From positions 1 through 25,559 of the forward strand of contig CAZNQN010000001.1 in NCBI GenBank assembly GCA_964574925.1: a stretch of DNA of 25,559 nucleotides, in the 5' to 3' direction. Within the stretch, counting starts at the first letter, position 1, and every line of letters begins with the position of its first letter. Shown here piece by piece: positions 898-25,559 of this stretch. Position numbers and translations under genes: made by a program. This DNA is from an uncultured Phycisphaeraceae bacterium (lineage in GTDB: Bacteria > Planctomycetota > Phycisphaerae > UBA1845). Under the pieces are notes generated by a model. That model searched no databases, was not told where the DNA came from, and saw only the letters and a program-made list of their open reading frames with translations.

Positions 898-942
898 TCA
901 AGCTGTCGCGGATCGGTTCGGCACTCGCGGTTCCGTTCATGG

Positions 943-970: not shown

Positions 971-979
971 AAGGGGACA

Positions 980-3215: not shown

Positions 3216-3218
3216 ATC

Positions 3219-4943: not shown

Positions 4944-4956
4944 GGAGCGGGTCGGC

Positions 4957-8131: not shown

Positions 8132-8156
8132 GAATCGAATGGATTGCTAGGACATG

Positions 8157-8192
8157 CCCCGTGCAAGGCGGCACGGGGAAAGTCAGGGAGGA
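8157..8192 (+). promoter_or_regulatory. Flagellin leader: hairpin CCCCGTGC-AAGGCG-GCACGGGG followed by SD CAGGGAGGA (candidate CsrA target)
   Basis: Perfect 8-bp stem at 8157-8164/8171-8178. SD at 8184-8192 contains AGGGA. The architecture resembles the Bacillus hag leader. Confidence 0.6.
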
Positions 8193-8198
8193 TTCAAC

Positions 8199-9650
8199 AT
8201 GTCACGGATTAACAGTAACGTCCCCTCGTTGATCGCTCAGCGTCACCTCGCGATTTCGCAAGAGGCGCTGCGACTATCCCTCGAGCGTCTCTCGAGCGGT
8301 CTGAAGATCAACCGGGGAGCGGACAACCCCGCGGGACTGATCGTCTCGGAACGGTTGCGTTCCGAGATCGGCGTGGTCAAACAGGCCATCGACAACACCT
8401 CGCGGGCGATCAACGTCATCGCCACCACCGAAGGCGCCCTGGACGAGGTGCAGGCGCTGCTGACGGACATCCAGGCGAAGATCGTAGAGGCGGCCAACAG
8501 CGGGGCGTTCTCCGACGATGAGATCGCCGCCAACCAGCTCCAGATCGACAACGCCATCGAGTCGATCACCCGGATCGCCAACACGACCACGTTCGCCGGG
8601 CGGAAGCTCATCAACGGCGAGCTGGACTACGTCACCAGTGGCGTGCAGACCAGCGCCCTGTCCGACGTGAACATCCTCGGGGCCAAGTTCGGCTCGCTGC
8701 CGTTCGTGGGGGTGACGGTGGACGTGGCGCAATCCGCGCAGAAAGCGGAGCTGGCGTTTGCCGGACCGGGACTGGGCGGCAGCTCCGTTACCGTGGACAT
8801 CCGCGGCAACGACGGAATCATCACGCTCACCTTCCCCGCCAGCGCGTCGACCGTGGACATGGTCAACGCCATCAACCAGCAGGTGGACGCCACCGGGGTG
8901 GTGGCGGTGTTGAGCGGGACGAACGGCTCAGCCGGAATGCGCATCCAGAGCCTCGAATACGGCAGCGATGCCTTCGTCTCCGTTCGCCAGATCGGCGGCG
9001 GCGGGTCGTTCGTCACCAAAAACCGCCAGGGTGTCGTCGATGATCACACCACGGGGCGAGACGCCGTGGCCACCGTCAACGGCATCAAGGCGGCCGCCAA
9101 CGGGTTGCGGCTGAGCTTCAGCTCTTCGCTGCTGAAACTCGAACTGACGCTGAACGAGTCGTACGGCAACGGCTCGACGGGGTTGGGACAGACCAGTTTC
9201 TCCATCACCGACGGCGGGGCGCTGTTCCAGCTCGGACCGCAGGTCAACACCAACCTCCAGGAGAACATCGGCGTCAAGAGCATGCAGGCCAACAAGCTGG
9301 GCAACGCCATCGTCGGGTACCTCTCCTCCTTGCAGAGCGGGCAACCCAACGAGTTGCGGAGCGGCAATTTCCAGCAGGCCTCCAAGATCGTGCAGGAGGT
9401 CATCACCCAGGTGGCGGTCCTCCGCGGGCGGTTGGGGGCGTTCGAGCGGAACACGCTCCAGCCCAACATCCGTCAGTTGCAGATCACGACGGAGAACCTG
9501 ACCGCTTCGGAGGCGACCATCCGGGACACGGACTTCGCGGCCGAGACGTCGGAGCTGACGCGGGCGCAGATTCTGGTGCAGGCGGGCAACAGCATTCTCG
9601 CCATCGCCAACGCGCAGTCGCAGAACGTTTTGACGCTGCTCGGCGGATAA
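8199..9650 (+). CDS. fliC: Flagellin (483 aa)
   Basis: MSRINSNV, LERLSSGLKINRGADNPAGL, GRLGAFERN and C-terminal LTASEATIRDTDFAAETSELTRAQILVQAG. Strong SD before the ATG at 8199. Confidence 0.97.
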   Translation: MSRINSNVPSLIAQRHLAISQEALRLSLERLSSGLKINRGADNPAGLIVSERLRSEIGVVKQAIDNTSRAINVIATTEGALDEVQALLTDIQAKIVEAANSGAFSDDEIAANQLQIDNAIESITRIANTTTFAGRKLINGELDYVTSGVQTSALSDVNILGAKFGSLPFVGVTVDVAQSAQKAELAFAGPGLGGSSVTVDIRGNDGIITLTFPASASTVDMVNAINQQVDATGVVAVLSGTNGSAGMRIQSLEYGSDAFVSVRQIGGGGSFVTKNRQGVVDDHTTGRDAVATVNGIKAAANGLRLSFSSSLLKLELTLNESYGNGSTGLGQTSFSITDGGALFQLGPQVNTNLQENIGVKSMQANKLGNAIVGYLSSLQSGQPNELRSGNFQQASKIVQEVITQVAVLRGRLGAFERNTLQPNIRQLQITTENLTASEATIRDTDFAAETSELTRAQILVQAGNSILAIANAQSQNVLTLLGG

Positions 9651-9829: not shown

Positions 9830-12800
9830 TTACGGCTCCTCACCTTTCCAGTCGGGCAGTCGTCCCGGCGTCCAGGGCGCATGAGCCGCTTCGAACTTCT
9901 TCTCCAGCGCCGTCAGGTCGCGCATCAGCGCGCGAAGCTCGTCCTGCGCCTCGGCGAACGCCTCGCCCGCGTAACGGTATTCGTCACGCTGCGTCTGCGT
10001 CGGCGCTGAGGTGACGTACCAGTCCATCGCGTTGCTGATGCGGGTGGCGATCGAGGGCGGCACGGGTTCCTGGTGCTTGGCCCGCGTCCGGTCGCCGCTC
10101 AGCTTCGTCCGCAGCTTGTTCAGGCGACCCTCCAATGCGTGCAAGTGCGCGAACAGGTCGGGCTTGGCCTCCGGCGTCTCCAGATACGCCTTGCGAAGGT
10201 GGGCGATGCGCCGGGCGATCTCGTCGGTGCTGCGGATCGCGCCGCGTACCGCGCGGTACAGCTCCGCCACCTGGCGATTGAATGTCATCGCCTCCTCCTG
10301 GTCCTCCGCCGGGAAGGTCGCCAGCTTCAGCGGCACCACCTTGAAGGACACCGGTTCCGTCAGCTCGCTGATCTGCCCGTCCACCTCCTTGACGAGCGTG
10401 ACCGTGTAGGTGCCGGGCAACGCCAGCGGACCGGAGGGCGACCGTTCCCACGGTGGTCGGTTTTCGTTTTTTTTCAGAGAGATCGGCTGCGTGGACGGGT
10501 AGCGCAGGTTCCAGGCCGCCCGGTGGATGCCCTTCTCGCGGGACCCCTTGACCCGGCGGACGACCTCGCCGCTTTCGTCGCGCACCACCAGCCAGACCTG
10601 CGGCTCTTTCTCCTCGTCCTCGGCCCGCAGCTCCTCCAGCGTGGGATAGCGGACCGGTTTGCCGGCTTTCATGGCCTTTTTCTCCGCTTCGCGGCGCTTC
10701 TCCTTGCGCGTCTGGAGTTTCTCCTTGAGGTAGTAGGTGAACACGGCACCGAAGGGCGGGTTCTTGGCGGTGAAGTAGGAGGCACCCTGCGAGCCGCGCC
10801 CGGTGAAACCGCCCAGCCGGCTGTGCGGGATGTAACGCAGCGCGTCCTTGACGGGGAAGACATGGGCCGCCTTTTGGAGGAGCTCCTCGGTGACATGGCG
10901 AAGCGGGGTGTAGTCGTCGAGGATGTAGAATCCCCGGCCGAAGGTGGCCATCGCGAGGTCGTTCTCCCGCCGCTGCACGTCCAGGTCGCGGACGGCGATG
11001 GTGGGCAACCCGCTGATCTTGAACCACTTCTTGCCGCCGTCGAGCGTGAAATAGGCGCCGAACTCGGTGCCCACGAACAGCAGGTCCGCCTTCTCGTGGT
11101 CCTGCTGGATGCTGTAGACGATGTTTCGCTCCGGCAGGTTGCCGGTGATCGAGGTCCAGTTCCGCCCACGATCGGTGCTCTTGAGCAGGTACGGTTTGAA
11201 GTCGCCGTTCTTGTGGTTGTCGAAGGAGGCGTAGACCGTATCGGGATCGTGAAGAGAGGCGTAGACACAACTGACGTAGGTCATGTCGGGCACTTCGGGA
11301 AAGAGGGCGATCCGCCGCCACGTCTTGCCGCCGTCCTCGGTGACGTCGATGAGTCCGTCGTCGGTGCCTACGTAGATCAACCCCTCCACCAGCGGCGATT
11401 CGCTCAGCGCCACGGCATTGCCGAAGATGGAGGTGGAGCGGTTCTTGGCGACGGCGTCCACGCTCTGGATCTTGCCCATCACTTCGAGCTGGTTGCGGTC
11501 CAGCCGCCGGGTGAGGTCGCCGCTGATGACCGTCCAACTGTTGCCGCGGTCGTCGGAGCGGAACAGCTTGTTGGCGGCGAAATAAAGCCGTGTGTGACTG
11601 TGCGGGCTGATGATCAGCGGCGTATCCCAGTTCCAGCGGTAGGGCTCCTCGCCCGGTTTCTCCCGCGGTTTGATGTCCACGATCTCGCCGCTGCGGCGGT
11701 CGTGACGCACGAGTCCGCCGTACTGCCACTGGCTGTAGACGATGTTCGGGTCTTCAGGATCGACCTGGGTCTTGTATCCGTCGCCGCCGACGGTGATGAA
11801 CCAGTCCTCGTTGGCGATCCCGCCGGGACTGAGCGTCCGCGAGGGACCGCCCTGCGAATTGTTGTCCTGCGTCCCGCCGTAAACGTTGTAGAAGGGTTTC
11901 GCCTGGTCGACGCTTACGCGGTAGAACTGGGTCACGGGCAGGTTGGGTTTGAAGTGCCAGTTCCGCGCGCGGTCGTAGGTTTCGTAGATGCCGCCGTCGC
12001 AACCGACCAGCATGTGTTCGTTGTTGGCGGGGTCGATCCAGAGGGCGTGGTCGTCGACGTGGCGGTCCTTGCCCGGCACGCGGTGGAAGGTCTTGCCGCC
12101 GTCCTCGGTCACGCGCATGAAGGTGTCCAGCGCGTAAACCCGGTCCACCTCCACCGGGTCGCAGACGATCTCGTTGTAGTATTGGGGACTGGTCGTCATG
12201 TACCCGCTGCGCCTCTCCCACGTCTCGCCCCGATCGGTGGAACGGAAGAAGCCGCCCTTGTCGAACTGCGCCTCGATAATGGCGTACACCACGTCCGGAT
12301 CGGCCGGCGAGATGCACATGCCGATCCGTCCCTTGTCCACGTTGGGGATGCCGTGGGTGATCTTGCGCCAGGTCTTGCCGGCGTCGGTGGACTTGTAGAT
12401 CGCCGATTCCGGACCCCCGTTGATCAGCGTCCAGACCCGGCGGCGGCGCTGGTAGGCGGTGGCGTACAGCGTATCGGGATCGCGCGGGTCCATGTGGACC
12501 TCGTTGATTCCCGTATCGTCGCTGATGTGCAGGATGCGCCTCCAGGTCTTGCCGCCGTCGGTCGTTTTGTACAACCCGCGATCGCCGCCGGAGCGCCACA
12601 GCGGTCCCTGGGCGGCCACGTAGACCACGTTCGAATCGCGCGGGTCGACGACGATCCGCCCGATGTGTTCGGACTCTTTCAGGCCCATGTTCCGCCAGTG
12701 CTTCCCGCCGTCGACACTCTTGTACACCCCGTCGCCGAACGACACGCTGCGCTGACTGTTGTTTTCGCCCGTACCGACCCAGACGACGTGCGGGTTGTTC

Positions 12801-13129
12801 GGATCGACGGTGACGCAGCCGATCGAGTACGAGCCCTGTGAATCGAAAACGGGTGTGTAGGTGATGCCGGCGTTTTCCGTCTTCCAGACGCCGCCGGAGC
12901 AGACGGCCACGTAGTATTCCGTCCAGTCGTGCGGGTTGATGCCGAAGTCGCAGATCCGCCCGGACATCAGCGCCGGGCCGATCGACCGTGCTTTCAACCC
13001 GGCGAACGTGGCGTTGCTCAACGTGACGCCGCCGGGTTTGCCCTCCTTTTCCCCGGCCCGCACGGGGCACAGGGCCGGGAGGGCGCACAACGTGACCAGT
13101 CCGAGGGTACGAAATGGGGAATGCTTCAT
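9830..13129 (-). CDS. Secreted Asp-box/BNR-repeat beta-propeller protein (VPS10/sortilin-like, usually annotated as a glycosyl hydrolase), 1099 aa
   Basis: Sec signal peptide and 11 Asp-box-like motifs (e.g. YKSVDGGKHW, YKTTDGGKTW, FRSTDRGETW). C-terminal Ig-like segment (VRDESGEVVRR..GIHRAAWNLRY..PGTYTVTL) and a helical tail. AAGGAG SD on the minus strand. Confidence 0.88.
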   Translation of the reverse strand: MKHSPFRTLGLVTLCALPALCPVRAGEKEGKPGGVTLSNATFAGLKARSIGPALMSGRICDFGINPHDWTEYYVAVCSGGVWKTENAGITYTPVFDSQGSYSIGCVTVDPNNPHVVWVGTGENNSQRSVSFGDGVYKSVDGGKHWRNMGLKESEHIGRIVVDPRDSNVVYVAAQGPLWRSGGDRGLYKTTDGGKTWRRILHISDDTGINEVHMDPRDPDTLYATAYQRRRRVWTLINGGPESAIYKSTDAGKTWRKITHGIPNVDKGRIGMCISPADPDVVYAIIEAQFDKGGFFRSTDRGETWERRSGYMTTSPQYYNEIVCDPVEVDRVYALDTFMRVTEDGGKTFHRVPGKDRHVDDHALWIDPANNEHMLVGCDGGIYETYDRARNWHFKPNLPVTQFYRVSVDQAKPFYNVYGGTQDNNSQGGPSRTLSPGGIANEDWFITVGGDGYKTQVDPEDPNIVYSQWQYGGLVRHDRRSGEIVDIKPREKPGEEPYRWNWDTPLIISPHSHTRLYFAANKLFRSDDRGNSWTVISGDLTRRLDRNQLEVMGKIQSVDAVAKNRSTSIFGNAVALSESPLVEGLIYVGTDDGLIDVTEDGGKTWRRIALFPEVPDMTYVSCVYASLHDPDTVYASFDNHKNGDFKPYLLKSTDRGRNWTSITGNLPERNIVYSIQQDHEKADLLFVGTEFGAYFTLDGGKKWFKISGLPTIAVRDLDVQRRENDLAMATFGRGFYILDDYTPLRHVTEELLQKAAHVFPVKDALRYIPHSRLGGFTGRGSQGASYFTAKNPPFGAVFTYYLKEKLQTRKEKRREAEKKAMKAGKPVRYPTLEELRAEDEEKEPQVWLVVRDESGEVVRRVKGSREKGIHRAAWNLRYPSTQPISLKKNENRPPWERSPSGPLALPGTYTVTLVKEVDGQISELTEPVSFKVVPLKLATFPAEDQEEAMTFNRQVAELYRAVRGAIRSTDEIARRIAHLRKAYLETPEAKPDLFAHLHALEGRLNKLRTKLSGDRTRAKHQEPVPPSIATRISNAMDWYVTSAPTQTQRDEYRYAGEAFAEAQDELRALMRDLTALEKKFEAAHAPWTPGRLPDWKGEEP

Positions 13130-13728: not shown

Positions 13729-14217
13729 ATGCTGACGCTGACGGGGGAGTATGCGCTGCGGGCGATGGTGTTCCTGGCCCGGCAGGACGGCGGTGGTCCC
13801 GTCCCGGGACGCCGCATCGCACGGGAAACGCGGATCCCGCCCACTTACCTGTTGAAAGTTCTGGGGGATCTCGTCCGGGCCGGGTTGCTCGCCTCGGCAC
13901 CGGGTCGGCACGGAGGATTCCGGCTGGTGCGCGCCCCGAATCGAACCACGCTCTACGAGGTGTTGGTCCCCTTCGAGGTTCTCGAGCACGAGCGTTGCCC
14001 GTTCGGGAACGAGATTTGCAGCGAAGAACACCCGTGCAGGGCCCACGAAAAGTGGAAACGGGTCGTGGATTCCGAAAAACGCTTCCTCAAGCGGACCACC
14101 ATTGCGGATCTCGTGCAGCCGGAGGCGACGAAAGGACCGGCCCGCCGTCGGCGCAGCGGCACGAAGTCCCCCCGTCGGGAGACTCGGCGGACGTCCCGCA
14201 AGGGCGGTGGGCGGTGA
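13729..14217 (+). CDS. Rrf2-family transcriptional regulator with Fe-S cluster cysteines
   Basis: EYALRAM, IPPTYLLKVLGDLVRAGLL and GRHGGFRL. Cys90, Cys97 and Cys103 followed by His106 (CPFGNEICSEEHPCRAH). GGGAGG SD. Confidence 0.92.
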   Translation: MLTLTGEYALRAMVFLARQDGGGPVPGRRIARETRIPPTYLLKVLGDLVRAGLLASAPGRHGGFRLVRAPNRTTLYEVLVPFEVLEHERCPFGNEICSEEHPCRAHEKWKRVVDSEKRFLKRTTIADLVQPEATKGPARRRRSGTKSPRRETRRTSRKGGGR

Positions 14218-14232
14218 AAGGCGACGTGACGA

Positions 14233-16203
14233 ATGGGTGAAGGTGAAACAGCGGTGGCATCGCGCGGAACCGCCGACGGCTGGCCCGTCGTTCCCGTCGA
14301 GGTGCCGGACGAAACCTACTGGCGGAAACAGATCAAGTGCCAGTACGCCTGCCCGGTACACACCGACGCCCGCGGTTACGTGCGGGCCATCGCCCGCGGT
14401 GATTTCGAGACGGCCTATCTGATCGCCCGCGGTCCCAACCCGCTGGCGAGCATCTGCGGGCGGGTGTGCGGAGCGCCGTGCGAGGCCGCCTGTCGCCGCG
14501 GCTCCCTCGATCAGGCGATTTCCATCCGCGCCCTGAAGCGGTTCGTCACGGAACAATTCGGTCCGGAAGCGTTCCGGGAGGCGGAGTTCAAACCGCTCGA
14601 TCTTCTTCGCCGGGTGCTTCGCCACGCCTCGGAGCGAGCGTGCAGCGGTCCGGAGGAGCTGGCCGCTTTGGCGAAGACGCTTCGCCTGCGAAACGGCAAG
14701 CCCCCCGACGGTCCGAGCGTGGGCATCATCGGCTCCGGTCCGGCGGGTCTGGCGGCCGCTCACGATCTGGCCTTGCTGGGGTACCGCCCGGTGGTCTACG
14801 AGCTGGAGCCGGTGCCGGCGGGGATGCTGGCCGTCGGCATTCCGGAGTATCGCCTGCCGCGCGATCTGATCCGGGCGGAGGTGGAGGTCATCCGCGCCCT
14901 GGGCGTCGAGTTCATCTGCAACACCCGCGTCGGCGAGGACATCACGCTGGCGGAGATCCGCCGCAAGCATCGTGCGACCATTATCGCCGTGGGGGCGAAG
15001 AAGTCGCGCTCCATTCCGATCCCCGGCGCCGACGGACCGGGCGTCTTCGGCGGGATCGAGTTCCTCCGTGACGTGGCGCTGAAGAACCGCGGCGAGGGGT
15101 CCACCCTCCGTCGTCTCGGCAAGCGGATCGTGGTGATCGGCGGGGGGAACGTGGCCTACGACGTGTCGCGGACGGTGATCCGGCAGACGGGGTATGACGT
15201 GTCGCGCAGCGCGCTGCGTCAGGCGGCGGGGGCGGAGGTGCACCTGTGCTGCCTGGAGAGCATCGACGAGATGCCGGCGGACGACGTGGAGATCCTCGAA
15301 GGAGACGAGGAGGGCGTCCGACTCCATCCGTCCCTCGGTCCGGCGGAAGTGCTCCGCGACGGGGCGAGGGTGCGCGGCGTGGTCTTCAAGCGGTGTCTGT
15401 CGGTCTTCGACGAGAAGGGGCGCTTCGCCCCGCGCTTCGATGAAAACGACCGCGTGACGATCGAGGCGGACACCGTCATCTGGGCGATCGGGCAGCGACC
15501 GGACCTGTCGTTCGTCGAGCCGGAAGCGGATTTGAAGCTCAACGAACGCGGACTGATCGACTGCGATCCGGAGACATTGCAGACCTCGGCGCAGGACGTC
15601 TTCCTGGCGGGGGACATCGCGCACGGTCCGCGTCTGTTGATCGATGCCGTGGCGAGTGGAAAGAAATGCGCCCGATCGATTCACGCGTACCTGTCGGGCC
15701 AACCGCTGTCGTCGGAGCGGGAGCTGGTCCATCTGGAGATTCCGGGATACGAGCGGGAACCGGATTACGAAAAACATCCGCGCCGTCCCGTTCCCACGCT
15801 GGAGCCGCAGAAACGGCGGGCGAGCCAGACGGCCGTGGTGGAACGCGGCTACACGCGCGACGAAGCGATGTTCGAGGCCTGTCGCTGCCTGGATTGCGGC
15901 GTGAACACCATTTTCGATTCGGACAAGTGCATCCTCTGCGGCGGGTGCGCGGACGTCTGCCCGGAGCTTTGCCTGCAACTGGTCTCGTGCGACCGGCTTG
16001 CCGGGGACGAGCGTGTTCAAAGCGCCCTGCGGGAACGATTCGGGGAGGAGGACCTAACGGCCGTTTCGGCCATCGTGAAGGACGAGGAGAAGTGCATTCG
16101 TTGCGCCCTGTGTGCCCAGCGCTGTCCGACGGGGGCGATCACGATGGAGCGGTTTTCATTCCGGGATATGTGGAACGCGCCCGCGGGGGCGTGTACGGGA
16201 TAA
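14233..16203 (+). CDS. Cytoplasmic FAD/Fe-S NAD(P)H oxidoreductase (GltD/NfnB/DsrL-like) with a C-terminal 2x[4Fe-4S] ferredoxin domain
   Basis: CQYACP and CGRVCGAPCEAAC; GSGPAG (FAD) and GGGNVA (NAD(P)H); FLAGD; CRCLDC; CILCGGCADVCP and CIRCALCAQRCP. No signal peptide. Confidence 0.9.
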   Translation: MGEGETAVASRGTADGWPVVPVEVPDETYWRKQIKCQYACPVHTDARGYVRAIARGDFETAYLIARGPNPLASICGRVCGAPCEAACRRGSLDQAISIRALKRFVTEQFGPEAFREAEFKPLDLLRRVLRHASERACSGPEELAALAKTLRLRNGKPPDGPSVGIIGSGPAGLAAAHDLALLGYRPVVYELEPVPAGMLAVGIPEYRLPRDLIRAEVEVIRALGVEFICNTRVGEDITLAEIRRKHRATIIAVGAKKSRSIPIPGADGPGVFGGIEFLRDVALKNRGEGSTLRRLGKRIVVIGGGNVAYDVSRTVIRQTGYDVSRSALRQAAGAEVHLCCLESIDEMPADDVEILEGDEEGVRLHPSLGPAEVLRDGARVRGVVFKRCLSVFDEKGRFAPRFDENDRVTIEADTVIWAIGQRPDLSFVEPEADLKLNERGLIDCDPETLQTSAQDVFLAGDIAHGPRLLIDAVASGKKCARSIHAYLSGQPLSSERELVHLEIPGYEREPDYEKHPRRPVPTLEPQKRRASQTAVVERGYTRDEAMFEACRCLDCGVNTIFDSDKCILCGGCADVCPELCLQLVSCDRLAGDERVQSALRERFGEEDLTAVSAIVKDEEKCIRCALCAQRCPTGAITMERFSFRDMWNAPAGACTG

Positions 16204-16215
16204 AGGAATTCGACG

Positions 16216-16710
16216 ATGCCCACGACGAGTCCCGAACTGGAACAAAGCCAGCGCTTTCGACCGCCGGAGACGCGGCGGGATTTTCTGGGATTGGCGGCGG
16301 CATGGTCCGCGGTGGTGGCGATGGTGATGGCGCTTCTGGGGGCGATGCGACTGCCCATGCCCTCGGTGTTTCCCGAGTCGAATTCGAAGGTCAAGCTCGG
16401 CAAACCGAAGCGCTATGCCGTCGGTTCCGCGACCTATTTCCCCAAGCACCGCCTCTGGCTGTTCCGGACCCCGGAGGGGTTTCATGCCCTCTCGGCCGTC
16501 TGCACCCACCTGGGGTGCGTGACGGAGAGAGAAGAGGACGGGCATTTCCAGTGTCCGTGTCACGGCAGCAAGTTCGCGGCGGACGGGGCGCTGCTCGCGG
16601 GTCCGGCGCCGAGAGGGTTGCACTGGGTGGAGCTGAGCGTGTCGCCGGAGGGGTGGCTGGTGGCGGACACGCTGCGCGACGTGGAACCGGGGACCGTGTT
16701 GCAGGCCTAG
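16216..16710 (+). CDS. Rieske [2Fe-2S] subunit of a Rieske/cytochrome b complex
   Basis: Tat-like TRRDFL plus TM helix; box I CTHLGC; box II CPCHGS; GPAPRGL. Confidence 0.95.
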   Translation: MPTTSPELEQSQRFRPPETRRDFLGLAAAWSAVVAMVMALLGAMRLPMPSVFPESNSKVKLGKPKRYAVGSATYFPKHRLWLFRTPEGFHALSAVCTHLGCVTEREEDGHFQCPCHGSKFAADGALLAGPAPRGLHWVELSVSPEGWLVADTLRDVEPGTVLQA

Positions 16711-16731
16711 GCGGGCAAGCGGAGTGTCATC

Positions 16732-18336
<1,605 letters not shown>

Positions 18337-18359
18337 TTCACAAGGATCGGAAATCAGCG

Positions 18360-21359
18360 ATGGACATCAAGCAAGTCCGAGTGATGAAGGCGGTGCTCCT
18401 GGTCAGCTCGCTGGCGTCGCTGCTGGTGCTGGCGACGGCGGCCTATCAGGAGAACCTCACCGGGGAATGGCGCGACGCCCAACGCGCCTACAAGAAGCTG
18501 CTGCTGGAGACGGCGCCGGACGACAACGCCCGCAGGGTGGCCGCCTCGTTCCGCATCGAGCCGCGACAGCTCTATCTCCCGGAGCTGGGTCGGATCGACC
18601 GGTGCACGACGTGCCATCTGGGAGTGGAGAATCCCGCCGCCGGAGACGCCGATCCGCCGCTGGGCAGGCACCCGGGCGAGTGGCTCGTCCAGCATCCGCC
18701 GGAGAAGTTCGGCTGCACGATCTGTCACGAGGGGCGCGGACGGGCCACGGTGCGGGAACTGGCGCACGGCTGGGACGAACACGGCGAGGCGGTGCCCTTT
18801 GTGGAAAGGCCGCTGCTGCGCGGCGACGCGGTCTATACGAGTTGCGGGCGCTGCCACGCGGAAATCGATCTGTTCGGTGGGGAGGCGGATCTGTTCGCAG
18901 GCGGGGCGAGCGGAACGAAACTGGTGGCCGCCGTCACGGAGGAATCGCTTCACCGGACGCTGCCCGGGGCGGATCGTCTGGCGCGGGGGAAGCGTCTCAC
19001 GGCGGAACTGGGTTGCCTGGGCTGTCACAAGTATCGCGGTCGCGGCGGCACGCTGGGACCGGACCTGACCTACGTCGGCGACAAAGGCAAACACCAGTTC
19101 GATTTCACGCATGTGAAGGGGGAGCACACCGTCGAACAGTGGCTCTTCGAGCATTTCAAGACGCCGCGGGAGATTTCGCCCAACACCGTCATGCCCGACA
19201 TGGGGCTTTCCGATGACGAGGCGCGCGATCTGGCGCTGTACATGATGAGCCTGCATCGCAAGACGGCGCCGGCGAGTCATATGCCGCCCCCGCCGAAGCA
19301 TGTGGCCTCGGCGGAACCTGTCCGGGGGGAAACGCTCTACAAGATGTTCTGCTCCGCCTGTCACGGGGCGGACGGGTCCGGCACGACGATGCGGGAGGGG
19401 TTGTGGCCGATCGGTGCCGATCCCTGGGGACGGGACTGGGATGCAAAGTCGGTCGTGGTCCAGCGACGCGGCAGCCTGGAGGTGATGGTTCCCTCGCTGC
19501 ACCACGACGACACGCTGGCGACCGTCAGCGACGAGTATCTCTACGCGATCATCGCGGGCGGGCGTCCGGGGACGAAGATGCCGGCATGGGCGGACGAGGG
19601 CGGCCTCAGCGACGATGAGATCACGTTGCTCGTCTCCTTCCTGCGCCGGTGGCAGGAGCCGCCGCCCGATCGGGCGGGCGTTTCGGCCAAGCGGGGCGAT
19701 CCGCGCGTCGGGGCCGCCCTGTATCGGGCCAACTGCGCCGCCTGCCACGGCGTCCGCGGCGAGGGCGGGATCGGCGTCTCGCTCAATTCCCCGACGTTCC
19801 TCGCCGTGGCATCGGATGAATTTCTCCGCGACACGATCGTGTATGGTCGGCCCAATACGGCGATGCCCGCCTGGCGGCAGTTCGACGCCCAGGAATTGAG
19901 CGATCTGCTGGCGTACATCCGCACCTGGCAGCCGCAACGCAGCACGCCGGAAAAGACGCTCGCGCTGCTGAAGAACGGTGAGGAGGCGGGCGTTTCGGCG
20001 CGGATCGGCCGGATCCTCTACGATGCGAACTGCGCCACCTGTCACGGGCCGGACGGCGGCGGCGACCTTGGACCGTCGCTGAATACGCAGGCGTTCCTGA
20101 CGGTCGTGCCGGATCGGTATCTGGTGGAGACGCTCATCCGCGGTCGGCCGGGAACGGGTATGCCGAGCTGGCGGCACCTCTCCGACGAGGATGTCGCCTC
20201 GCTGGTGCGTTACATCCGGACGTGGCAGCGGAAGCCGTCGAAACCGGACGACTGGTACGCGCAGACGGTGCCGCGCGGTGACTGGGACGCAGGGCGAAGT
20301 CTCTTCCACGGTCAGTGTGCGTCCTGCCACGGGCAGGAGGCGGAAGGGGCATCCGGGCCGCAGCTCGCCAACCCCGTTTTTCTCGACCTCGCCTCCGATG
20401 TCATGCTGCGCGAGTGGATCCGCAACGGCAAGGAGGGAACGGAGATGCGCCCGTTCCGCAAGGGCGGACAGGGCGTCGCGGAACTCTCCGATCGCCAGAT
20501 CGAGGACATCATCGCCTACCTTCGCTTCCTGGGCCGATCCGGAGAAGGCGCGGTGAGCCGTGTGGCCAAGTCGCCGTTCGGTCGCCCGGAAAAGGGAGCG
20601 GTGGTCTACGCGGCGAACTGCACCGGATGTCACGGTCCGCGGGGCGAGGGCGCGAGCGGTCCGGCGCTGTCCAATCCCAATTTCCTGCGCTTTGCTTCCG
20701 ACGGGTTTCTGATGGCGACGATGGCCATCGGGCGACGGGGCACGGAAATGCGCCCGGTCAAGCGCGGACCGCAATCCATTCTCGGACTGAGCAGCGACGA
20801 GATACACGATCTGGTCGCCTATCTGCGCTCCTGGGAGTACGCCCCGCCGTTTCCGCGGGTGACGGGCGGATCACCGAAGGCGGCCGTGCCACATCGTTTC
20901 GTTGTGCCGTGGAACCTGAAACGGGGGCAGAGGCTGTTCCGTTCCTTCTGTGCCGGTTGCCACGGCAAGGAGGGGAAAGGTTCCTGGGCGCCGGAACTGA
21001 ACAACGAGGGGTTCCTCTCGGCGGCCACCGACGGGTTCCTTCAGGCGACGATCATCCGCGGTCGCAAGGGCACGGCCATGCGCCCCTTCGGACGTGGGGC
21101 CAACGGGCTGAGCGATCTGACCATGCAGGACGTGGACGACATCGTGGCGTACATCCGGAGCTGGTCGGGCTCGACGCCTTCCCCGATGACGCTGCCGGCC
21201 GAGCGCTCGCTGCAATGGCCGGATACCGAAGAGGTGACACAAGGTCGGGCGCCGGAGACGGAGGGCGCGCCGGTCGGCGCCGTTGCTGAGGATGAATCGC
21301 GTCGCTCGCCGCCGGCCGTGGCGACGGCGACTGTTCGTGCAAGGAGATCGAAACGATGA
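18360..21359 (+). CDS. Membrane-anchored modular decaheme cytochrome c (999 aa)
   Basis: N-terminal TM/signal and ten CxxCH motifs: CTTCH, CTICH, CGRCH, CLGCH, CSACH, CAACH, CATCH, CASCH, CTGCH, CAGCH. The last seven are in class I domains with a distal MP/MRP Met. Start placed at the ATG at 18360, after AAGGA. Confidence 0.92.
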   Translation: MDIKQVRVMKAVLLVSSLASLLVLATAAYQENLTGEWRDAQRAYKKLLLETAPDDNARRVAASFRIEPRQLYLPELGRIDRCTTCHLGVENPAAGDADPPLGRHPGEWLVQHPPEKFGCTICHEGRGRATVRELAHGWDEHGEAVPFVERPLLRGDAVYTSCGRCHAEIDLFGGEADLFAGGASGTKLVAAVTEESLHRTLPGADRLARGKRLTAELGCLGCHKYRGRGGTLGPDLTYVGDKGKHQFDFTHVKGEHTVEQWLFEHFKTPREISPNTVMPDMGLSDDEARDLALYMMSLHRKTAPASHMPPPPKHVASAEPVRGETLYKMFCSACHGADGSGTTMREGLWPIGADPWGRDWDAKSVVVQRRGSLEVMVPSLHHDDTLATVSDEYLYAIIAGGRPGTKMPAWADEGGLSDDEITLLVSFLRRWQEPPPDRAGVSAKRGDPRVGAALYRANCAACHGVRGEGGIGVSLNSPTFLAVASDEFLRDTIVYGRPNTAMPAWRQFDAQELSDLLAYIRTWQPQRSTPEKTLALLKNGEEAGVSARIGRILYDANCATCHGPDGGGDLGPSLNTQAFLTVVPDRYLVETLIRGRPGTGMPSWRHLSDEDVASLVRYIRTWQRKPSKPDDWYAQTVPRGDWDAGRSLFHGQCASCHGQEAEGASGPQLANPVFLDLASDVMLREWIRNGKEGTEMRPFRKGGQGVAELSDRQIEDIIAYLRFLGRSGEGAVSRVAKSPFGRPEKGAVVYAANCTGCHGPRGEGASGPALSNPNFLRFASDGFLMATMAIGRRGTEMRPVKRGPQSILGLSSDEIHDLVAYLRSWEYAPPFPRVTGGSPKAAVPHRFVVPWNLKRGQRLFRSFCAGCHGKEGKGSWAPELNNEGFLSAATDGFLQATIIRGRKGTAMRPFGRGANGLSDLTMQDVDDIVAYIRSWSGSTPSPMTLPAERSLQWPDTEEVTQGRAPETEGAPVGAVAEDESRRSPPAVATATVRARRSKR

Positions 21360-24157
21360 GTGACAAACCCATGACCGTACTGGATCCGGACGGTCTTCCC
21401 GCGGAATGCACGTTCCACCGGGCGGTCAAGAACGCCTGCGGATTCGACCGGCGGGCGTTCATGCGGATGGCCGCCGGGACCGGCGCCGCCGTGGCGGCGA
21501 CCAGTCTTCTGCCGGACGAATTCGTCGTGGCCCGCGCCGCGCCCACGCCGGGCGTCGACGACGGACGGGGGATGCGCCTGCTCCAGGCGGCCTGTCCGTA
21601 TTGCGGGGTGGGCTGCGGGACGCTGATCAAGGTGGAAAACGGACGGGTCGTCGGCATGGTCCCCGACAAGAAGCATCCCACCAACCGGGGCATCCAGTGC
21701 ATCAAGGGACTCAACGCCCATGAGCCCATCTACAAGGACCGGCTCACGAAGGTGCTCATCCGCCGCGACATGAGCGATCCGCTCCGCGGGCACGTCTCGG
21801 CCACCAAGGGACGCTTCGACGACGACGTGTTCCGCGAGGCGACCTACGAAGAGGCTGAGGAGATCGTCGCCGACCGCATCGCCGAGCTGGTCAAGGAGCG
21901 CGGACCGAACGTGATCGGCCTGAACGGCTCCGGTCAGCTCACCATGGAGGCGCAGTGGATCGAGAACCTGCTGATGAAGGGCGTGCTGGGGAGCAACTCG
22001 ATCGAGGCCAACGCCCGCATGTGCATGACCTCGGCGGTCACGGGGTATTTCTACTCCTACGGCTCCGACGCGCCGCCCACCAGCTACGAGGACATCGAGG
22101 AGGCCGACTTCATCACCTTCTGGGGACACAACGCCCGCGAGGCGCACCCGATTCTGTTCTGGCGGGTGGCGGACCACAAGGCCCGCAACGACATCCCCAC
22201 CTGCGTATCCGATCCGCGCCGCACGGGGACGGTTGTCGGACTCGAAGACATCAATCCGCGGAACAGCTATCACATCCAGACGCTCAACGGCGACATCAGC
22301 TACCTCAACGCCATCGCCTATCTGCTCATGAAGCGGTATCCGCGGGCGTGCATGCCGGAAGCATGGCTGGAGAAGAACACCAACGGGTGGAAGGATTACC
22401 GCGACGGTGTTTTGCAACGGTACTCGCCGGAGCAGGTGGTCGAGCGGCTCAAGCCGATCGACCAGGGGCGGGTGACGGTGGAACTGCTGGAAAACGTCGC
22501 CCGCACCTGGGCAGAAGCGTCGATCCGCGGGCGGGAGCGCGGGCGGGGCGGCGTGCTGAGCTTCTGGGGCCTCGGATACAACCAGATGCTCCACGGGCAG
22601 CACAACACCATCAGCATCATCAACCTGCATCTGCTGACGGGGAACGTGGGCCGACCCGGATGCGGCAGCCACTCCCAGACCGGTCAACCCAACGCGATGA
22701 GCGAGCGGTTGATGGGCGGACTCACCGGAAGACTGCCGTTCAATCAACCTCTCAAGAACGCCGCCTGGCGGGACCACATCGCCGACGCGTGGCGCATTCC
22801 GCGGGAGCGGCTCGCCCAGACGAGTCTGCTTCCCAACCCGGGCATGGTCCTCGGCATGATGGAGCGGGCGCTGAAGGGCGGGCTGGACGCCATGTTCTGG
22901 ATGTACACGACGCACGTCCATCTGCCCGATTTGAAGAACCTGGTGCGCCCCGCGATGACCCGCATGTTCTGCGTCGTGCAGGAAATCTATCGCCACGCGC
23001 CCAACAACCTCTATGCGGACGTCATCTTTCCCGCCGCCACCTGGGGAGAGTGGACCGGCGGCACCTACATCCAGTCCGAGCGGCGGGTGTACGTCTGCGA
23101 CGGGACGGCCAACCCGCCGCCCAACTGCCGACCCGACATGGACATGGCCATCGACAAGGGCAAGGCGCTCGCCAAGCGGCTGGGGCTCGATCCGGACACG
23201 ATCTTCCCCTACGAAAAGAAGATCAAGATGGGCAACGGGATCATGGCCTACGATCCGGAGGACGTGTTCCGGGACATCGTCACCGCCAGCAAGGGATCGG
23301 ACGCCGACATGAGCGGCATGTTGGAAGTGGAAGCACGGGACGGCATTTCACTCTACGACCAGCTTCGCACCCTGCGGGGCGTTCAATGGCCGGCGCCGAC
23401 CTACGAGATCGCCAAGAAAGGCGGCACGCCGCGGCGCTACCTCGGGCAGGAAGGCTGGGCGGGCAAACCCTACGGCGCGTTCCGCCACAAGGACGGCAAG
23501 GCCCGCTTCAAGCTCTGCGAGCAGGATTACACCAAGCTCAAGGAAATCACCTCCAAGCTGATGACCTACGGCAACAAGCGGCGTCCGGGGGAAGGACCGT
23601 TCCTGATCGACGATCTCTATACCGACGGTCCCAACAAGGGCAGGCCGAAGATTCTGGTCGCCGCCCGCGACGCGGGTGTGACGCCGGAACTGCCCGATCT
23701 CGATGCCTACCGCGATCCGTCGCTGACCCTGAAGGATTTCCAGGAGCGCGATCTGTATCCGTTCTGGCTGGGACTGGGCGTGGTGTACGAACACTTCCAC
23801 ACCGCCAAGACCATCCGCGGGGCCACGACGCGCAAGCTCGTGCCCGAACAGTACGTCGAGGTCAACTCGGAGGACGCGAAGCGGTTCGGTCTCAAGGACG
23901 GGCAGCGGGTGCGGCTGGTGACCCGTCGCGGCTCGTACGAGGCGCGGGTTTCCGTCGGGCAGACGAGCATGATTCGTCCGGCCCGCAACCAGACCTTCCC
24001 CGGATACCTGTTCAGTCCGTGGAACCTGTCGGTGGCGGACAGCGCCGACCCGCGGAAGAACAAGTGGCTGGTCAATGCGACGAGCCACCGGGCGTGGGAT
24101 CCGGTCAGCGGTCAGTGCGACTACAAGAAACTGGCCGCCAGGATCGAGCCGCTGTGA
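21356..24157 (+). CDS. Tat-exported Mo-bisPGD oxidoreductase of the nitrate reductase (NapA/NasA/NarB) clade, divergent (933 aa)
   Basis: DRRAFM Tat motif; CPYCGVGC...CIKG [4Fe-4S]; Mo-ligand region NARMCMTSAV (Cys-Met, not the Cys/Sec-His of formate dehydrogenases); GSDAPPTSYEDIE; GQPNAM; EHFHT. ATGA overlap with the cytochrome c gene. Confidence 0.88.
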   Translation: MSDKPMTVLDPDGLPAECTFHRAVKNACGFDRRAFMRMAAGTGAAVAATSLLPDEFVVARAAPTPGVDDGRGMRLLQAACPYCGVGCGTLIKVENGRVVGMVPDKKHPTNRGIQCIKGLNAHEPIYKDRLTKVLIRRDMSDPLRGHVSATKGRFDDDVFREATYEEAEEIVADRIAELVKERGPNVIGLNGSGQLTMEAQWIENLLMKGVLGSNSIEANARMCMTSAVTGYFYSYGSDAPPTSYEDIEEADFITFWGHNAREAHPILFWRVADHKARNDIPTCVSDPRRTGTVVGLEDINPRNSYHIQTLNGDISYLNAIAYLLMKRYPRACMPEAWLEKNTNGWKDYRDGVLQRYSPEQVVERLKPIDQGRVTVELLENVARTWAEASIRGRERGRGGVLSFWGLGYNQMLHGQHNTISIINLHLLTGNVGRPGCGSHSQTGQPNAMSERLMGGLTGRLPFNQPLKNAAWRDHIADAWRIPRERLAQTSLLPNPGMVLGMMERALKGGLDAMFWMYTTHVHLPDLKNLVRPAMTRMFCVVQEIYRHAPNNLYADVIFPAATWGEWTGGTYIQSERRVYVCDGTANPPPNCRPDMDMAIDKGKALAKRLGLDPDTIFPYEKKIKMGNGIMAYDPEDVFRDIVTASKGSDADMSGMLEVEARDGISLYDQLRTLRGVQWPAPTYEIAKKGGTPRRYLGQEGWAGKPYGAFRHKDGKARFKLCEQDYTKLKEITSKLMTYGNKRRPGEGPFLIDDLYTDGPNKGRPKILVAARDAGVTPELPDLDAYRDPSLTLKDFQERDLYPFWLGLGVVYEHFHTAKTIRGATTRKLVPEQYVEVNSEDAKRFGLKDGQRVRLVTRRGSYEARVSVGQTSMIRPARNQTFPGYLFSPWNLSVADSADPRKNKWLVNATSHRAWDPVSGQCDYKKLAARIEPL

Positions 24158-24215
24158 TGGAGACGGCGGCGTCTGCGAAGTCACGGGCGGGGGATCAGAC
24201 CGGAGAGGGGATGCC

Positions 24216-24842
24216 ATGAGGGGCGGACAACCCACCCGTCGGGAGTTCGTCAAGCACGCCGCTGTCGTCGGGGCGGCTGTCGGCGGGGGAGTGTATCTGG
24301 CATCCGTCGAGGGAGTCGGTCGAGACGAGGCTGCCGATCCGCCGCCGCTGCGCCCGCCGGGAGCGCTGCCGGAAAGCGCCTTTCTGGCGACGTGCATCCG
24401 CTGCCTGCGCTGCGTGGACGCCTGCCCCAATCATGCCCTGGTGTCGCTGCCGATCGGGACGCCGGGCGGTCAGGGGGGGACGCCGACGTTGAGGCCCCGC
24501 AAAGCGGCCTGCATGTTGTGCGACACCGATGCGGGCGAGTTCCTCAAATGCACCGAGGTCTGCCCCTCGGGGGCGCTTCAGCTCGTCCGCAAGACGAAGG
24601 AGGAGATTCACGAAAAGGTGCACATCGGCGTGGCGGAGATCGATTTCGATCTGTGCTACTCCTACAACAACTGGAGCTGCGGGGCGTGTTTCCGGGCGTG
24701 TCCGCTGGCGGGCGAGGCGCTGACGGTGGGATTGTGGGAACGGCCGACGGTGCATGAGGAGGCCTGCGTGGGGTGCGGTTGTTGCGAGCGGGCGTGCATC
24801 CGCTATCCGCACGCCATTCGGGTCAAGGTGAAAAGCGCATGA
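24216..24842 (+). CDS. NapG/MauM-type 4x[4Fe-4S] ferredoxin, copy 1 (208 aa)
   Basis: Tat motif TRREF; LRPPGALPESAFLATCIRCLRCVDACP; CMLC...CTEVCP; C...CGACFRACP; CVGCGCCERAC. Start moved to the ATG at 24216, after GGAGAGGGG. Confidence 0.9.
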   Translation: MRGGQPTRREFVKHAAVVGAAVGGGVYLASVEGVGRDEAADPPPLRPPGALPESAFLATCIRCLRCVDACPNHALVSLPIGTPGGQGGTPTLRPRKAACMLCDTDAGEFLKCTEVCPSGALQLVRKTKEEIHEKVHIGVAEIDFDLCYSYNNWSCGACFRACPLAGEALTVGLWERPTVHEEACVGCGCCERACIRYPHAIRVKVKSA

Positions 24843-25559
24843 TGGGGTTTTCCCGCCGGGACGTGATTCGTGCCACGGGCGCGGCACTGCTGGTGTCGCT
24901 GCTGGGAAGCGCAGCGCACGCGCTGATGCGGATTCGGAAGGCGAGGTACCCGGCCGTTCGCCGTCCCTACGCCCGTCCGCCGGGTTTGCTGCGCCCGCCC
25001 GGCGCGCTGCCGGAGGAGGATTTTCTGGCGGCGTGCATCCGCTGTTACCGCTGTCAGGACGCTTGCGAACCGGGGGCCATTCAGTTCTTCAGCGAGCGCG
25101 ACGGGCTGTTGTTCCATACCCCCTACGTCGATCCCGCGAAGAAGGGGTGCACGCTGTGCAACCAATGCGGACCGGCGTGTCCGACGGGCGCCCTTGTCCC
25201 GTTTTCGGACAGGTCCGAGGTGGACATGGGTTCGGTGGCGTTGCGGGAGGATCTTTGTCTTTCCCACAAGGCCAAGCGGATCCGGCGGGAACAGGATTTG
25301 CTTGCCCGTCTGGGGCAGCGCCCGACGAGCTCCCAGGCCGTCGTGGAACGGCGCGGGCCGTGCGGCGAATGCTACATGGTCTGCCCGCTGCGGAATCGGG
25401 CCATCAAGCTTGAACCGGGTTCTTTCCTGGCCCCCATCGTGGACCCGCGGGCGTGCGTGGGATGCGGACTGTGCGAGGAGATCTGCCGCACGGTGGTCCG
25501 CGGAGAACCGGCGATCCGCGTCGTGCGGACGCGACGGATGGCGGGAAGCGAGGCACCGG
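24839..25559 (+). CDS. NapG/MauM-type 4x[4Fe-4S] ferredoxin, copy 2 (3'-truncated by the window, missing from the ORF track)
   Basis: Translated by hand from the ATG at 24839 (ATGA overlap): MMGFSRRDVIRATGAALL..LRPPGALPEEDFLAACIRCYRCQDACEP..CTLCNQCGPACP..CLSH..CGECYMVCP..CVGCGLCEEIC. No stop before the window end. Confidence 0.9.
   Translation, partial: MMGFSRRDVIRATGAALLVSLLGSAAHALMRIRKARYPAVRRPYARPPGLLRPPGALPEEDFLAACIRCYRCQDACEPGAIQFFSERDGLLFHTPYVDPAKKGCTLCNQCGPACPTGALVPFSDRSEVDMGSVALREDLCLSHKAKRIRREQDLLARLGQRPTSSQAVVERRGPCGECYMVCPLRNRAIKLEPGSFLAPIVDPRACVGCGLCEEICRTVVRGEPAIRVVRTRRMAGSEAP

Follow-up and report, generated by a model that had tools for sequence, protein, structure and literature searches.

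The stretch of DNA analysed here, hereafter the window, is the entire 25,559-bp contig C1 (CAZNQN010000001.1) of a metagenome-assembled genome (MAG) from an uncultured Phycisphaeraceae bacterium (GCA_964574925.1; 2.77 Mb in 482 contigs, 72 per cent complete), and its second half carries most of an operon in which genes for a Rieske/cytochrome b complex with an NAD(P)-binding flavoprotein stand beside those for a decahaem cytochrome c and an exported molybdoenzyme related to periplasmic nitrate reductase (Nap). Eight genes run on the plus strand from position 13729, with intergenic gaps of 15, 12, 21, 23, −4 (ATGA), 58 and −4 (ATGA) bp; the initial annotation had placed eight co-oriented, tightly packed genes here, and all are present, each confirmed by domain searches. 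The first (13729..14217) encodes an Rrf2 regulator (Pfam Rrf2, 1.9e-29; TIGR00738 above cut-off) with three cysteines, C90, C97 and C103, spaced Cx6Cx5C, and this protein is likely the operon's Fe–S redox or NO-type sensor. It is followed by a cytoplasmic, GltD-like NAD(P)-binding flavoprotein of 656 aa without a transmembrane (TM) helix (14233..16203; Pfam and NCBIfam), a Rieske [2Fe-2S] protein with the twin-arginine (Tat) motif TRRDF and a TM anchor (16216..16710; Pfam Rieske), and a 534-aa fusion of cytochrome b6 (four helices) with a subunit-IV-like part (five helices; 16732..18336, Pfam Cytochrome_B). Then come the membrane-anchored decahaem cytochrome c (18360..21359; ten CXXCH motifs, TM residues 5–31), a Tat-exported molybdoenzyme of the bis-molybdopterin guanine dinucleotide type (21356..24157; 933 aa, Tat motif FDRRAFM, [4Fe-4S] motif CPYCGVGC...C) and two NapG-like periplasmic ferredoxins with four Cys clusters each, NapG1 (24216..24842; Tat motif) and NapG2 (24839..25559, the contig end; Tat motif FSRRDV, NCBIfam NapG/MauM). 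A scan for promoters and terminators gave no excess over shuffled expectation, and an inverted-repeat search 5′ of Rrf2 returned one weak palindrome only.

The operon is interrupted by the contig end and resumes on contig C134 of the MAG, whose opening 55 nt repeat without a mismatch the 55 nt with which the window closes. C134 supplies the last codons and stop of NapG2 and then four further genes, so that the operon comprises, with the eight genes of the window, 12 genes in the order Rrf2, NAD(P) oxidoreductase, Rieske, cytochrome b/subunit IV, decahaem, molybdoenzyme, NapG1, NapG2, NapH1, YHS-NapH2, NapF/G-like ferredoxin, hemerythrin. The initial annotation had pointed to the downstream sequence as the place to look for napH, and two NapH-like proteins and a third NapF/G-like protein follow there; the absence of napH is ruled out by the join and was an artefact of the contig end. 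NapH1 (527 aa, both CxxCP motifs), whose start overlaps the NapG2 stop (ATGA), is 28 per cent identical to E. coli NapH, and the polytopic NapH2 after it (704 aa) has two YHS domains and NapH-like motifs. The third ferredoxin keeps a twin-arginine remnant without a hydrophobic signal region, and the orthologue, at related locus L002, of the hemerythrin that follows it is weakly similar to the Fe–S repair proteins YtfE/RIC/DnrN. The motifs and topology of NapG (Tat, four clusters) and NapH (polytopic, two CxxCP) are seen in the NapG- and NapH-like proteins of the operon; NapG1 is 35 per cent identical to E. coli NapG across 216 aa and scores 107 bits against a cut-off of 178.85 and 126 bits, again under the cut-off, with the NapG model NF007012, and NapH1 of L002 scores 137 bits against a NapH cut-off of 213. 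The models of NapB, NapC and NapD have zero matches in the window, as had been stated, and NapB (PF03892) and NapD (PF03927) are likewise unmatched in five genomes, namely the window's own MAG, itself 72 per cent complete, and four carriers of the cluster. The C-terminal extension of NapH1 (C134, L090:about 1050–1640) is without any Pfam match and is made up of a helix resembling a signal sequence, then about 130 aa starting with His (HRILGLPHYSYKEDYP) and a last TM helix.

Relatives of the molybdoenzyme were sought in one genome per prokaryotic species, which gave 540 stretches from about 540 species genomes; the best 80 of the 540, with 67–85 per cent identity to the window molybdoenzyme, were examined as related loci, and their gene order was read by tblastn with the window proteins. 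The order NAD(P) oxidoreductase–Rieske–cytochrome b–decahaem–molybdoenzyme–NapG–NapG is kept in nearly all loci with enough flank, NapH1 and YHS-NapH2 lie downstream in all 45 of the 45 loci having more than 7 kb of 3′ flank, and these best 80 relatives span about ten phyla or groups, including Planctomycetota, Wallbacteria, Myxococcota, MAGs labelled Deltaproteobacteria, Latescibacterota, Gemmatimonadales, Binatota, Eiseniibacteriota and Elusimicrobiota. Because this order recurs in nearly all of the 80 loci with enough flank, the arrangement recurs far beyond chance, and the idea that it is unique to this genome is refuted. The proposal that these genes form one module covering cytoplasm, membrane and periplasm thus stands, its core genes co-occurring as a conserved unit over many phyla. 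Clustering of the flanks found only three conserved neighbours: an Rrf2 gene, which in about 22 related loci immediately precedes that for the NAD(P) oxidoreductase, and, in 16 loci, the third ferredoxin with the hemerythrin. The complete cluster is present in the cultured Deferrisoma camini (GCA_000526155.1), and carriers are, by their record titles, mostly MAGs of anoxic sediments, groundwater and vents. Nearer to the window, the molybdoenzyme occurs in 5 of 24 other genera of the same family and, among genomes from the rest of the order, in 1 of 16, and an orthologue of the flavoprotein in 16 other genomes of a phylum sample of 401 Planctomycetota genomes; as so few relatives at each level carry it, the module is accessory and patchy in distribution. 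A tblastn search of plasmids returned only relatives at 29 per cent identity or less.

The two halves of the cluster also occur apart. Elusimicrobiota loci have molybdoenzyme–NapG–NapG–NapH–NapH without the Rieske/cytochrome b module, preceded 5′ of the molybdoenzyme by genes for a histidine kinase, hemerythrin, MoeA, MobA, MoaA and an AlgE-type outer-membrane porin; at L043 the same block has a monohaem cytochrome only, and at L058 a six-domain class-I hexahaem cytochrome stands immediately before the molybdoenzyme with no Rieske/cytochrome b genes nearby. Conversely, the module of NAD(P) oxidoreductase, Rieske, cytochrome b and multihaem cytochrome has other partners in another Planctomycetota family. 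The existence of loci with only one module shows that the two are separable, and the cytochrome c is tied more faithfully to the molybdoenzyme than the Rieske/cytochrome b module is; its linkage to the molybdoenzyme without Rieske/cytochrome b at L058 supports the cytochrome as the molybdoenzyme's donor. Some individual loci show further variation. At L137 (G402:C56, 8361–17319) a cassette of NAD(P) oxidoreductase, Rieske, fused cytochrome b and multihaem c is followed by a 590-aa protein and a FixG-like Fe–S membrane protein, which stand in place of the molybdoenzyme. In Phycisphaerae, L024:9314–10549 and L013:4914–6143 encode, between molybdoenzyme and NapG1, a protein of about 410 aa that has neither an annotation nor haem motifs, where L002 and L015 have a small YCII-domain gene. 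The porin gene directly 5′ of the Nap-like enzyme at L072:8773–10026 (Elusimicrobiota; AlgE-type, Alginate_exp) and a 400-aa protein with a similar signal-peptide-like N-terminus at L140:9904–11106 (Eiseniibacteriota), which comes after a canonical NapA and its tetrahaem cytochrome, may be anion-uptake channels.

The nearest solved relatives of the Rieske protein are Kuste4569 (9rk4, 1.7e-22) and Kustd1480 (9rk3, 8.1e-19), each being the Rieske subunit in one of two NAD(P)-linked complexes from the anammox bacterium Kuenenia (Hauser et al. 2025, PMC12954380), and the best b6f Rieske protein follows at 1.5e-12. Genome G376 of the phylum sample, drawn from a family of mostly closed genomes with at least six HAO paralogues each, is a close relative of Kuenenia, as its Rieske protein matches 9rk4 at 4.5e-57, and in it the genes for Rieske, cytochrome b and NAD(P) oxidoreductase adjoin at two loci. 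By tblastn the window proteins are 38–39 (Rieske), 41–48 (cytochrome b) and 34–36 per cent (flavoprotein, residues 26–644, at both loci) identical to those of G376, and by alignment the window cytochrome b is 45–46 per cent identical to both anammox cytochromes b, with the four canonical haem histidines in common. Judged by these identities, the window module is homologous to both anammox NAD(P)-linked complexes, and the likeness to Kuenenia drawn in the initial annotation is borne out as homology at 34–48 per cent identity. Anammox genomes were recognised here by a 9rk4 match together with at least six HAO paralogues; Pfam HZS_alpha was dropped as a marker after it matched all five genomes tested, including the window's own MAG. 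The HZS_alpha matches in that non-anammox MAG lie at C90:7765–8061 and C49:400–711, and the domain is not specific for hydrazine synthase.

Sequence conservation in the window family is strong. The flavoprotein consists of an N-terminal two-cluster Fer4_20 domain, Pyr_redox_2 and a C-terminal pair of [4Fe-4S] clusters (2× Fer4), with 17 cysteines invariant among 49 sequences. The Rieske cluster boxes are CTHLGC and CPCHGSxF, with the Ser and Phe of box II invariant in 47 sequences; because box II is also that of the G376 orthologue of Kustd1480, and Kustd1480 has a measured potential above +300 mV (PMC12954380), a high potential of the window Rieske protein is plausible. A hydropathy plot of the cytochrome b shows four plus five segments, the closest solved relative being b6 (query Leu87 corresponding to b6 Leu36). 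Among 56 sequences the haem-b ligands His137, 151, 250 and 265 are invariant, as are H68, H142, C502 and H534, and the Qo motif APWY is present in 56 of 56 as well as in the subunit-IV part of G376. The position of b6 Cys35, which serves haem cn, is occupied by Gly (49), Ala (6) or Asp (1). Invariant H68 aligns with the first His of anammox WLHLHP/FMHLHP and by residue count corresponds to His43 of Hauser et al., who suggest that this His (His43/His62 in the anammox complexes) coordinates an additional haem b at the interface of the dimer (PMC12954380); H68 is a candidate ligand of such an extra haem. In NCBIfam the best match of the cytochrome b is ExtP, a protein of the Geobacter selenite/tellurite operon.

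The Kuenenia complexes (Kuste4569–4574 and Kustd1480–1485) and the window family thus have in common a GltD-like NAD(P) oxidoreductase gene beside Rieske and b6-type cytochrome b genes, a five-helix subunit IV, Ser in Rieske box II, the Qo motif APWY, the extra-haem His and a membrane-anchored multihaem c instead of cytochrome f or c1. They differ in that cytochrome b and subunit IV are fused in the window family, that the haem cn motif (CxGG) is WCMGG in anammox and has Gly or Ala in place of its Cys in the window family, and that the window flavoprotein keeps its N-terminal Fer4_20 domain, whereas the anammox homologues aligned from about residue 160 in the genome search and from residue 26 by tblastn. 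The partner differs too, being an HAO-like octahaem protein in Kuenenia and a Nap-like molybdoenzyme with NapG/NapH in the window, whose hosts are not anammox bacteria. Dibrova et al. (2017, PMC5600118) predict fusion of cytochrome b with subunit IV as a consequence of haem cn loss and already note, outside anammox, a cytochrome b subfamily beside NAD(P) oxidoreductases. The window family agrees with what that paper says of subfamily G and what Kao and Hunte (2014, PMC4122944) say of the 'APWY clade': APWY is invariant, a Cys-rich NAD(P)-binding oxidoreductase is the neighbour, occurrence is patchy over many phyla, and fusion accompanies haem cn loss, as predicted. As far as the portions available to us go, these two papers treat the cytochrome b family alone and describe no link to a Nap-like molybdoenzyme with NapG/NapH (PMC4122944; PMC5600118).

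The decahaem cytochrome that lies between this complex and the molybdoenzyme starts with a TM helix, after which come three haems of the c3/c7 type and seven class-I (CcoP-like) domains, the latter found by Pfam as seven Cytochrome_CBB3 repeats, and exactly ten CXXCH motifs occur in all 61 aligned cytochromes. The initial annotation had assigned to it the role of NapB and to the Rieske/cytochrome b pair that of NapC. The former fits, in that a multi-domain class-I cytochrome stays beside the molybdoenzyme without Rieske/cytochrome b (L058). The latter does not hold in so simple a form: because NapH-like and NapG/F-like proteins lie downstream on C134, two of the first kind and three of the second in the whole operon, the Rieske/cytochrome b pair is not a simple replacement of the quinol dehydrogenase.

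None of the curated models names the molybdoenzyme, and every score lies far under its cut-off: 278 and 300 bits for NapA (TIGR01706 and NF010055; cut-offs 930.55 and 904), 261 and 193 bits for NasA/NasC (cut-offs 1000 and 1100) and 294 bits for Fdh-alpha. The nearest solved relative is the monomeric NapA of D. desulfuricans (252 bits), and identity to E. coli NapA is 31 per cent over 599 aa. Cys223-Met224, Gln444 and Arg451 correspond to Cys140/Met141/Gln346/Arg354 of D. desulfuricans NapA and are invariant in 78 sequences, among which 281 of the 933 columns do not vary at all. The enzyme therefore has the NapA features of a Tat signal, an N-terminal [4Fe-4S] cluster, the Cys-Met ligand pair and the Gln and Arg of the substrate site; compared with D. 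desulfuricans NapA it is longer by about 200 residues at 617–800. An exhaustive search of 1.84 billion representatives gave four closer clusters outside the family, at 55, 50, 42 and 41 per cent identity and named by no NCBIfam model, and all other representatives are at most 39 per cent identical. Two representatives, P0232 and P0265, are distant relatives that cluster with the family and lack the molybdenum-ligand Cys (LSD and LRD vs MCM); they may be non-catalytic derivatives. An AlphaFold2 model of the molybdoenzyme from a shallow alignment of 32 sequences reached a mean pLDDT of 60 and a pTM of 0.54, and no structural conclusion is drawn from it.

In a FastTree phylogeny of 129 sequences, rooted on an FdhF-type reference and containing few named references (NapA of E. 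coli, Agrobacterium and Selenomonas; NasA of Klebsiella and Leisingera), the Cys-His sequences of formate dehydrogenase are basal and all Cys-Met sequences form one clade with support 100. Within it the family groups with the four unnamed representatives (support 99), and the sister clade of this group contains the references for NapA and NasA. The molybdoenzyme is, on this topology, a third lineage of the Cys-Met nitrate-reductase radiation, and its earlier placement within the Nap/Nas group is supported by both the tree and the Cys-Met signature. The enzyme probably reduces nitrate in the periplasm; nitrate is not dictated by the tree, and we consider it, with reasonable confidence, the most economical substrate. 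Canonical NapA was rejected as an identity, with scores under the cut-offs, a position outside the NapA clade and NapB and NapD unmatched in the five genomes. NasA/NasC/NarB was rejected in view of the Tat motif, scores under the cut-offs and no nitrite reductase gene conserved in the flanks, and formate dehydrogenase since Cys-Met is invariant and Cys-His sequences branch outside the Cys-Met clade.

The genomic company of the cluster was surveyed by a marker search in 51 carrier genomes, many of them incomplete MAGs, in which an absence is to be read as 'not found'. NarG above cut-off was found in 6 of the 51 and canonical NapA above cut-off also in 6 (12 at E<1e-100), so that the cluster would be the sole nitrate reductase for most of these carriers. 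NrfA was found in 7, NirB in 6, NirS in 1 and NirK in 0 of the 51, and an HAO-family multihaem protein (PF13447) in 43; three PF13447 genes that were inspected have eight CXXCH motifs in about 500 aa. In the phylum sample the octahaem protein is present in 12 of 16 carriers vs 111 of 384 non-carriers (odds ratio 7.4, Fisher p 3e-4, both of which overstate the association as related genomes are not independent). An octahaem gene and a hemerythrin gene lie directly 5′ of the cluster, divergent from it, in D. camini; at L059 an octahaem gene is inserted between molybdoenzyme and NapG1, and in several other carriers one adjoins canonical NapA, as in Caldithrix. RIC/YtfE-like hemerythrins recur across several phyla. 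Taken together, the octahaem proteins, the three-Cys Rrf2 and the RIC-like hemerythrins indicate N-oxide chemistry, and an epsilonHao-type enzyme would be the likely nitrite sink.

We consider it very probable that the cluster encodes a conserved module for respiration whose periplasmic enzyme reduces an oxyanion. We hold with moderate confidence the more specific reading of a quinol:nitrate reductase chain that conserves energy and may have an NAD(P) branch. Menaquinol would be oxidised at the APWY-type Qo site, and one electron would pass by way of the Rieske protein and the membrane-anchored decahaem, and then probably the NapG-like Fe–S proteins, to the exported molybdoenzyme, which would form nitrite from nitrate on the periplasmic side. 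This reduction would in that way be coupled to a Q-cycle-type, charge-separating oxidation of quinol, as in the Qcr-Nap system of Campylobacter. The second electron would cross the b haems and either return to the quinone pool, in which case the system would work like Qcr-Nap with 2 H+ per 2 e− (PMC6195509), or, by the putative His68-bound extra haem and the Fe–S chain of the flavoprotein, reach FAD and exchange with NAD(P)+/NAD(P)H. In this scheme the two NapH-like proteins probably serve as membrane anchors for NapG1 and NapG2 and may open another route, not electrogenic, to quinol or to Fe–S carriers of the cytoplasm; nitrite is probably handled by an HAO-family octahaem protein, mostly encoded elsewhere in the genome and adjacent in D. 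camini.

Whether NAD(P)+ would be reduced by electron bifurcation is a separate matter. Such a reduction was reportedly proposed for Kuenenia by Kartal in 2013. With the nitrate/nitrite couple at +420 mV, nitrate would be as good a driving couple as nitrite/NO. For the latter couple, at +380 mV, the energetics of bifurcation have been calculated, and bifurcation is unproven in the anammox complexes (PMC12954380). We give bifurcation in the window family some weight, on balance considering it doubtful. The strongest form of the idea, which we think unlikely, is a single supercomplex, spread across about ten phyla by gene transfer, in which one of the two menaquinol electrons takes the route of Rieske, decahaem, NapG and molybdoenzyme to nitrate and the other that of b haems, His68 haem and flavoprotein to NAD(P)+. 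If this is true, NAD(P)H would be formed in the course of nitrate respiration at no cost in proton-motive force, and the proposal is testable in cultured bacteria outside anammox such as D. camini.

Several observations weigh against the quinol:nitrate reductase chain. D. camini was reportedly described as a reducer of Fe(III) and S0. The molybdoenzyme is sister to NapA and NasA and not nested among them, the position of NapA Met308 holds Ile or Leu (Leu in the window), and classical nitrite reductases are rare in the 51 carriers. The class-I haems of the cytochrome are expected to be much more positive than the Fe–S clusters of NapG and NapA, which would make the final transfer steps uphill. 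The molybdoenzyme block without Rieske/cytochrome b in Elusimicrobiota means that the two modules need not be one complex, and the 'APWY clade' of cytochromes b is uncharacterised and is suggested to run in reverse (Kao and Hunte 2014, PMC4122944).

One alternative is that the modules are two machines that are merely co-transcribed. The molybdoenzyme with its NapG and NapH pairs would then be a self-sufficient, non-electrogenic quinol:nitrate reductase, in keeping with E. coli-type NapGH as an accepted quinol dehydrogenase (cited in PMC4683180), and the NAD(P)–Rieske–cytochrome b–decahaem set a general quinol:cytochrome c oxidoreductase serving several periplasmic reductases, for example an octahaem nitrite reductase, and not the molybdoenzyme specifically. 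The Elusimicrobiota loci, the loci with just a hexahaem (L058) or monohaem (L043) cytochrome and the other partners of the oxidoreductase module in other Planctomycetota and in anammox genomes all speak for such a division. Yet in nearly all of those among the 80 loci that have enough upstream flank, and across about ten phyla, the modules adjoin in one fixed order and their stop and start codons overlap; in the window it is the decahaem stop that overlaps the molybdoenzyme start (ATGA), and a class-I multihaem cytochrome stays beside the molybdoenzyme even where the Rieske/cytochrome b module is missing. We regard two independent machines as distinctly unlikely.

The other alternatives concern the direction of the chain and its substrate. 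Were it to run in reverse, the molybdoenzyme would oxidise a periplasmic donor and electrons would pass through decahaem and Rieske into menaquinone or on to NAD(P)+, pushed by NAD(P)H or proton-motive force, the NAD(P)+ route being as in the reversed bc1 of lithotrophs. The invariant APWY at Qo and a flavoprotein on the n-side, where it suits NAD(P)+ reduction, are consistent with this. However, the characterised members of the Cys-Met clade are all nitrate reductases and no Nap/Nas-type oxidase is known; the recognised oxidases of nitrite and arsenite fall in different clades, with a score of just 93 bits for the arsenite oxidase model. The carriers are mostly of anoxic origin, from sediments, groundwater and vents, and the link to HAO-type octahaem proteins and RIC-like hemerythrin fits N-oxide reduction. 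Reverse operation is the reading to which we give least credence. Hardly less improbable is that the same electron chain serves another high-potential oxyanion, that is selenate, tellurate, chlorate or iodate. The separate deep branch named by no curated model, the changed Met308, the extra residues at 617–800, the rarity of classical nitrite reductases and the ExtP match of the cytochrome b might all be explained in this way. Against it, the NapA residues contacting nitrate or molybdenum are invariant, the known selenate, chlorate and iodate reductases lie in other clades of the DMSO-reductase family, the flanks conserve neither a chlorite dismutase nor a comparable detoxifying partner, and the companions of the cluster (Rrf2, hemerythrin, octahaem) indicate N-oxides.

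An energy-coupled quinol:nitrate reductase would have precedents in part. In Campylobacter jejuni it has been shown experimentally that Nap is fed by a Rieske/cytochrome b complex, QcrABC (Garg et al. 2018, PMC6195509). Like the window family, this epsilonproteobacterial system (napAGHBFLD with QcrABC) has no NapC, has NapG, NapH and NapF homologues and receives electrons electrogenically from Rieske/cytochrome b; it differs in that qcr is unlinked to nap, in its canonical NapA with NapB and NapD, in its lack of an NAD(P) oxidoreductase subunit and in a dihaem, not decahaem, cytochrome (PMC6195509). For Caldithrix abyssi the feeding of Nap by Rieske/cytochrome b was predicted from a pair within the cluster (Kublanov et al. 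2017, PMC5317091). There too Rieske and cytochrome b lie inside a nap cluster without napB or napC and with napG and napH, an HAO-family octahaem protein (epsilonHao) is the proposed nitrite reductase, and Rieske/cytochrome b would make Nap electrogenic; in contrast to the window family, its NapA is described as ordinary Nap with a tetrahaem NapM, NAD(P) oxidoreductase, decahaem and duplicated NapG/NapH are lacking, and the octahaem gene, mostly unlinked in the window family, lies in the cluster (PMC5317091). The Nar systems of haloarchaea and Methanoperedens likewise join an exported nitrate reductase to unusual membrane modules (Rieske/cytochrome b, extended NapH-like) that replace NarI or NapC, but their catalytic subunit is of the NarG type, from another DMSO-reductase clade, and no NAD(P) oxidoreductase accompanies it (PMC3509893; PMC4683180). 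The initial annotation had thought the combination uncharacterised, which holds to the extent that a full-text literature search found no description of the operon; the coupling of Nap to Rieske/cytochrome b is not new in principle (PMC6195509; PMC5317091). What is new is the distinct molybdoenzyme lineage, the breadth of its distribution and its fixed linkage to an NAD(P)-bearing complex by way of a decahaem cytochrome and duplicated NapG/NapH.

The remainder of the window and of the MAG holds some further features. Positions 1–9650 carry late flagellar genes (FlgH, FlgI, FlgN, FlgK, FlgL-like, FliW and flagellin); in the FlgI frame (743–2338) about 180 residues precede the FlgI domain, and the true start may be farther downstream. 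Between these and the operon, on the minus strand at 9830–13129, lies a gene for a 1099-aa protein of BNR/Asp-box and sortilin-Vps10 repeats, divergent from the Rrf2 operon and separated from it by a 600-bp intergenic region. Elsewhere in the MAG, contig C20 (L091:2553–5615, minus strand) encodes a second Tat molybdoenzyme, of 1020 aa, which is nearest to the tetrathionate reductase TtrA (504 bits, cut-off 1750).

Periplasmic nitrate reduction is usually taught as a redox-balancing route that is not itself coupled to energy conservation. If the quinol:nitrate reductase chain is true, a Nap-like enzyme wired to Rieske/cytochrome b would amount to an energy-conserving respiration in many uncultured bacteria of sediments, groundwater and vents. 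Standard annotation names the enzyme merely 'molybdopterin oxidoreductase', and with about 540 species genomes encoding a relative and most of the 51 carriers without another nitrate reductase, nitrate-reducing potential in metagenomes may as a result be undercounted. NAD(P)-linked Rieske/cytochrome b complexes have been a question of anammox research since 2013, and here the same module comes with a defined high-potential partner and a cultured, faster-growing host, by which the bifurcation hypothesis and the proposed extra haem b would become directly testable.

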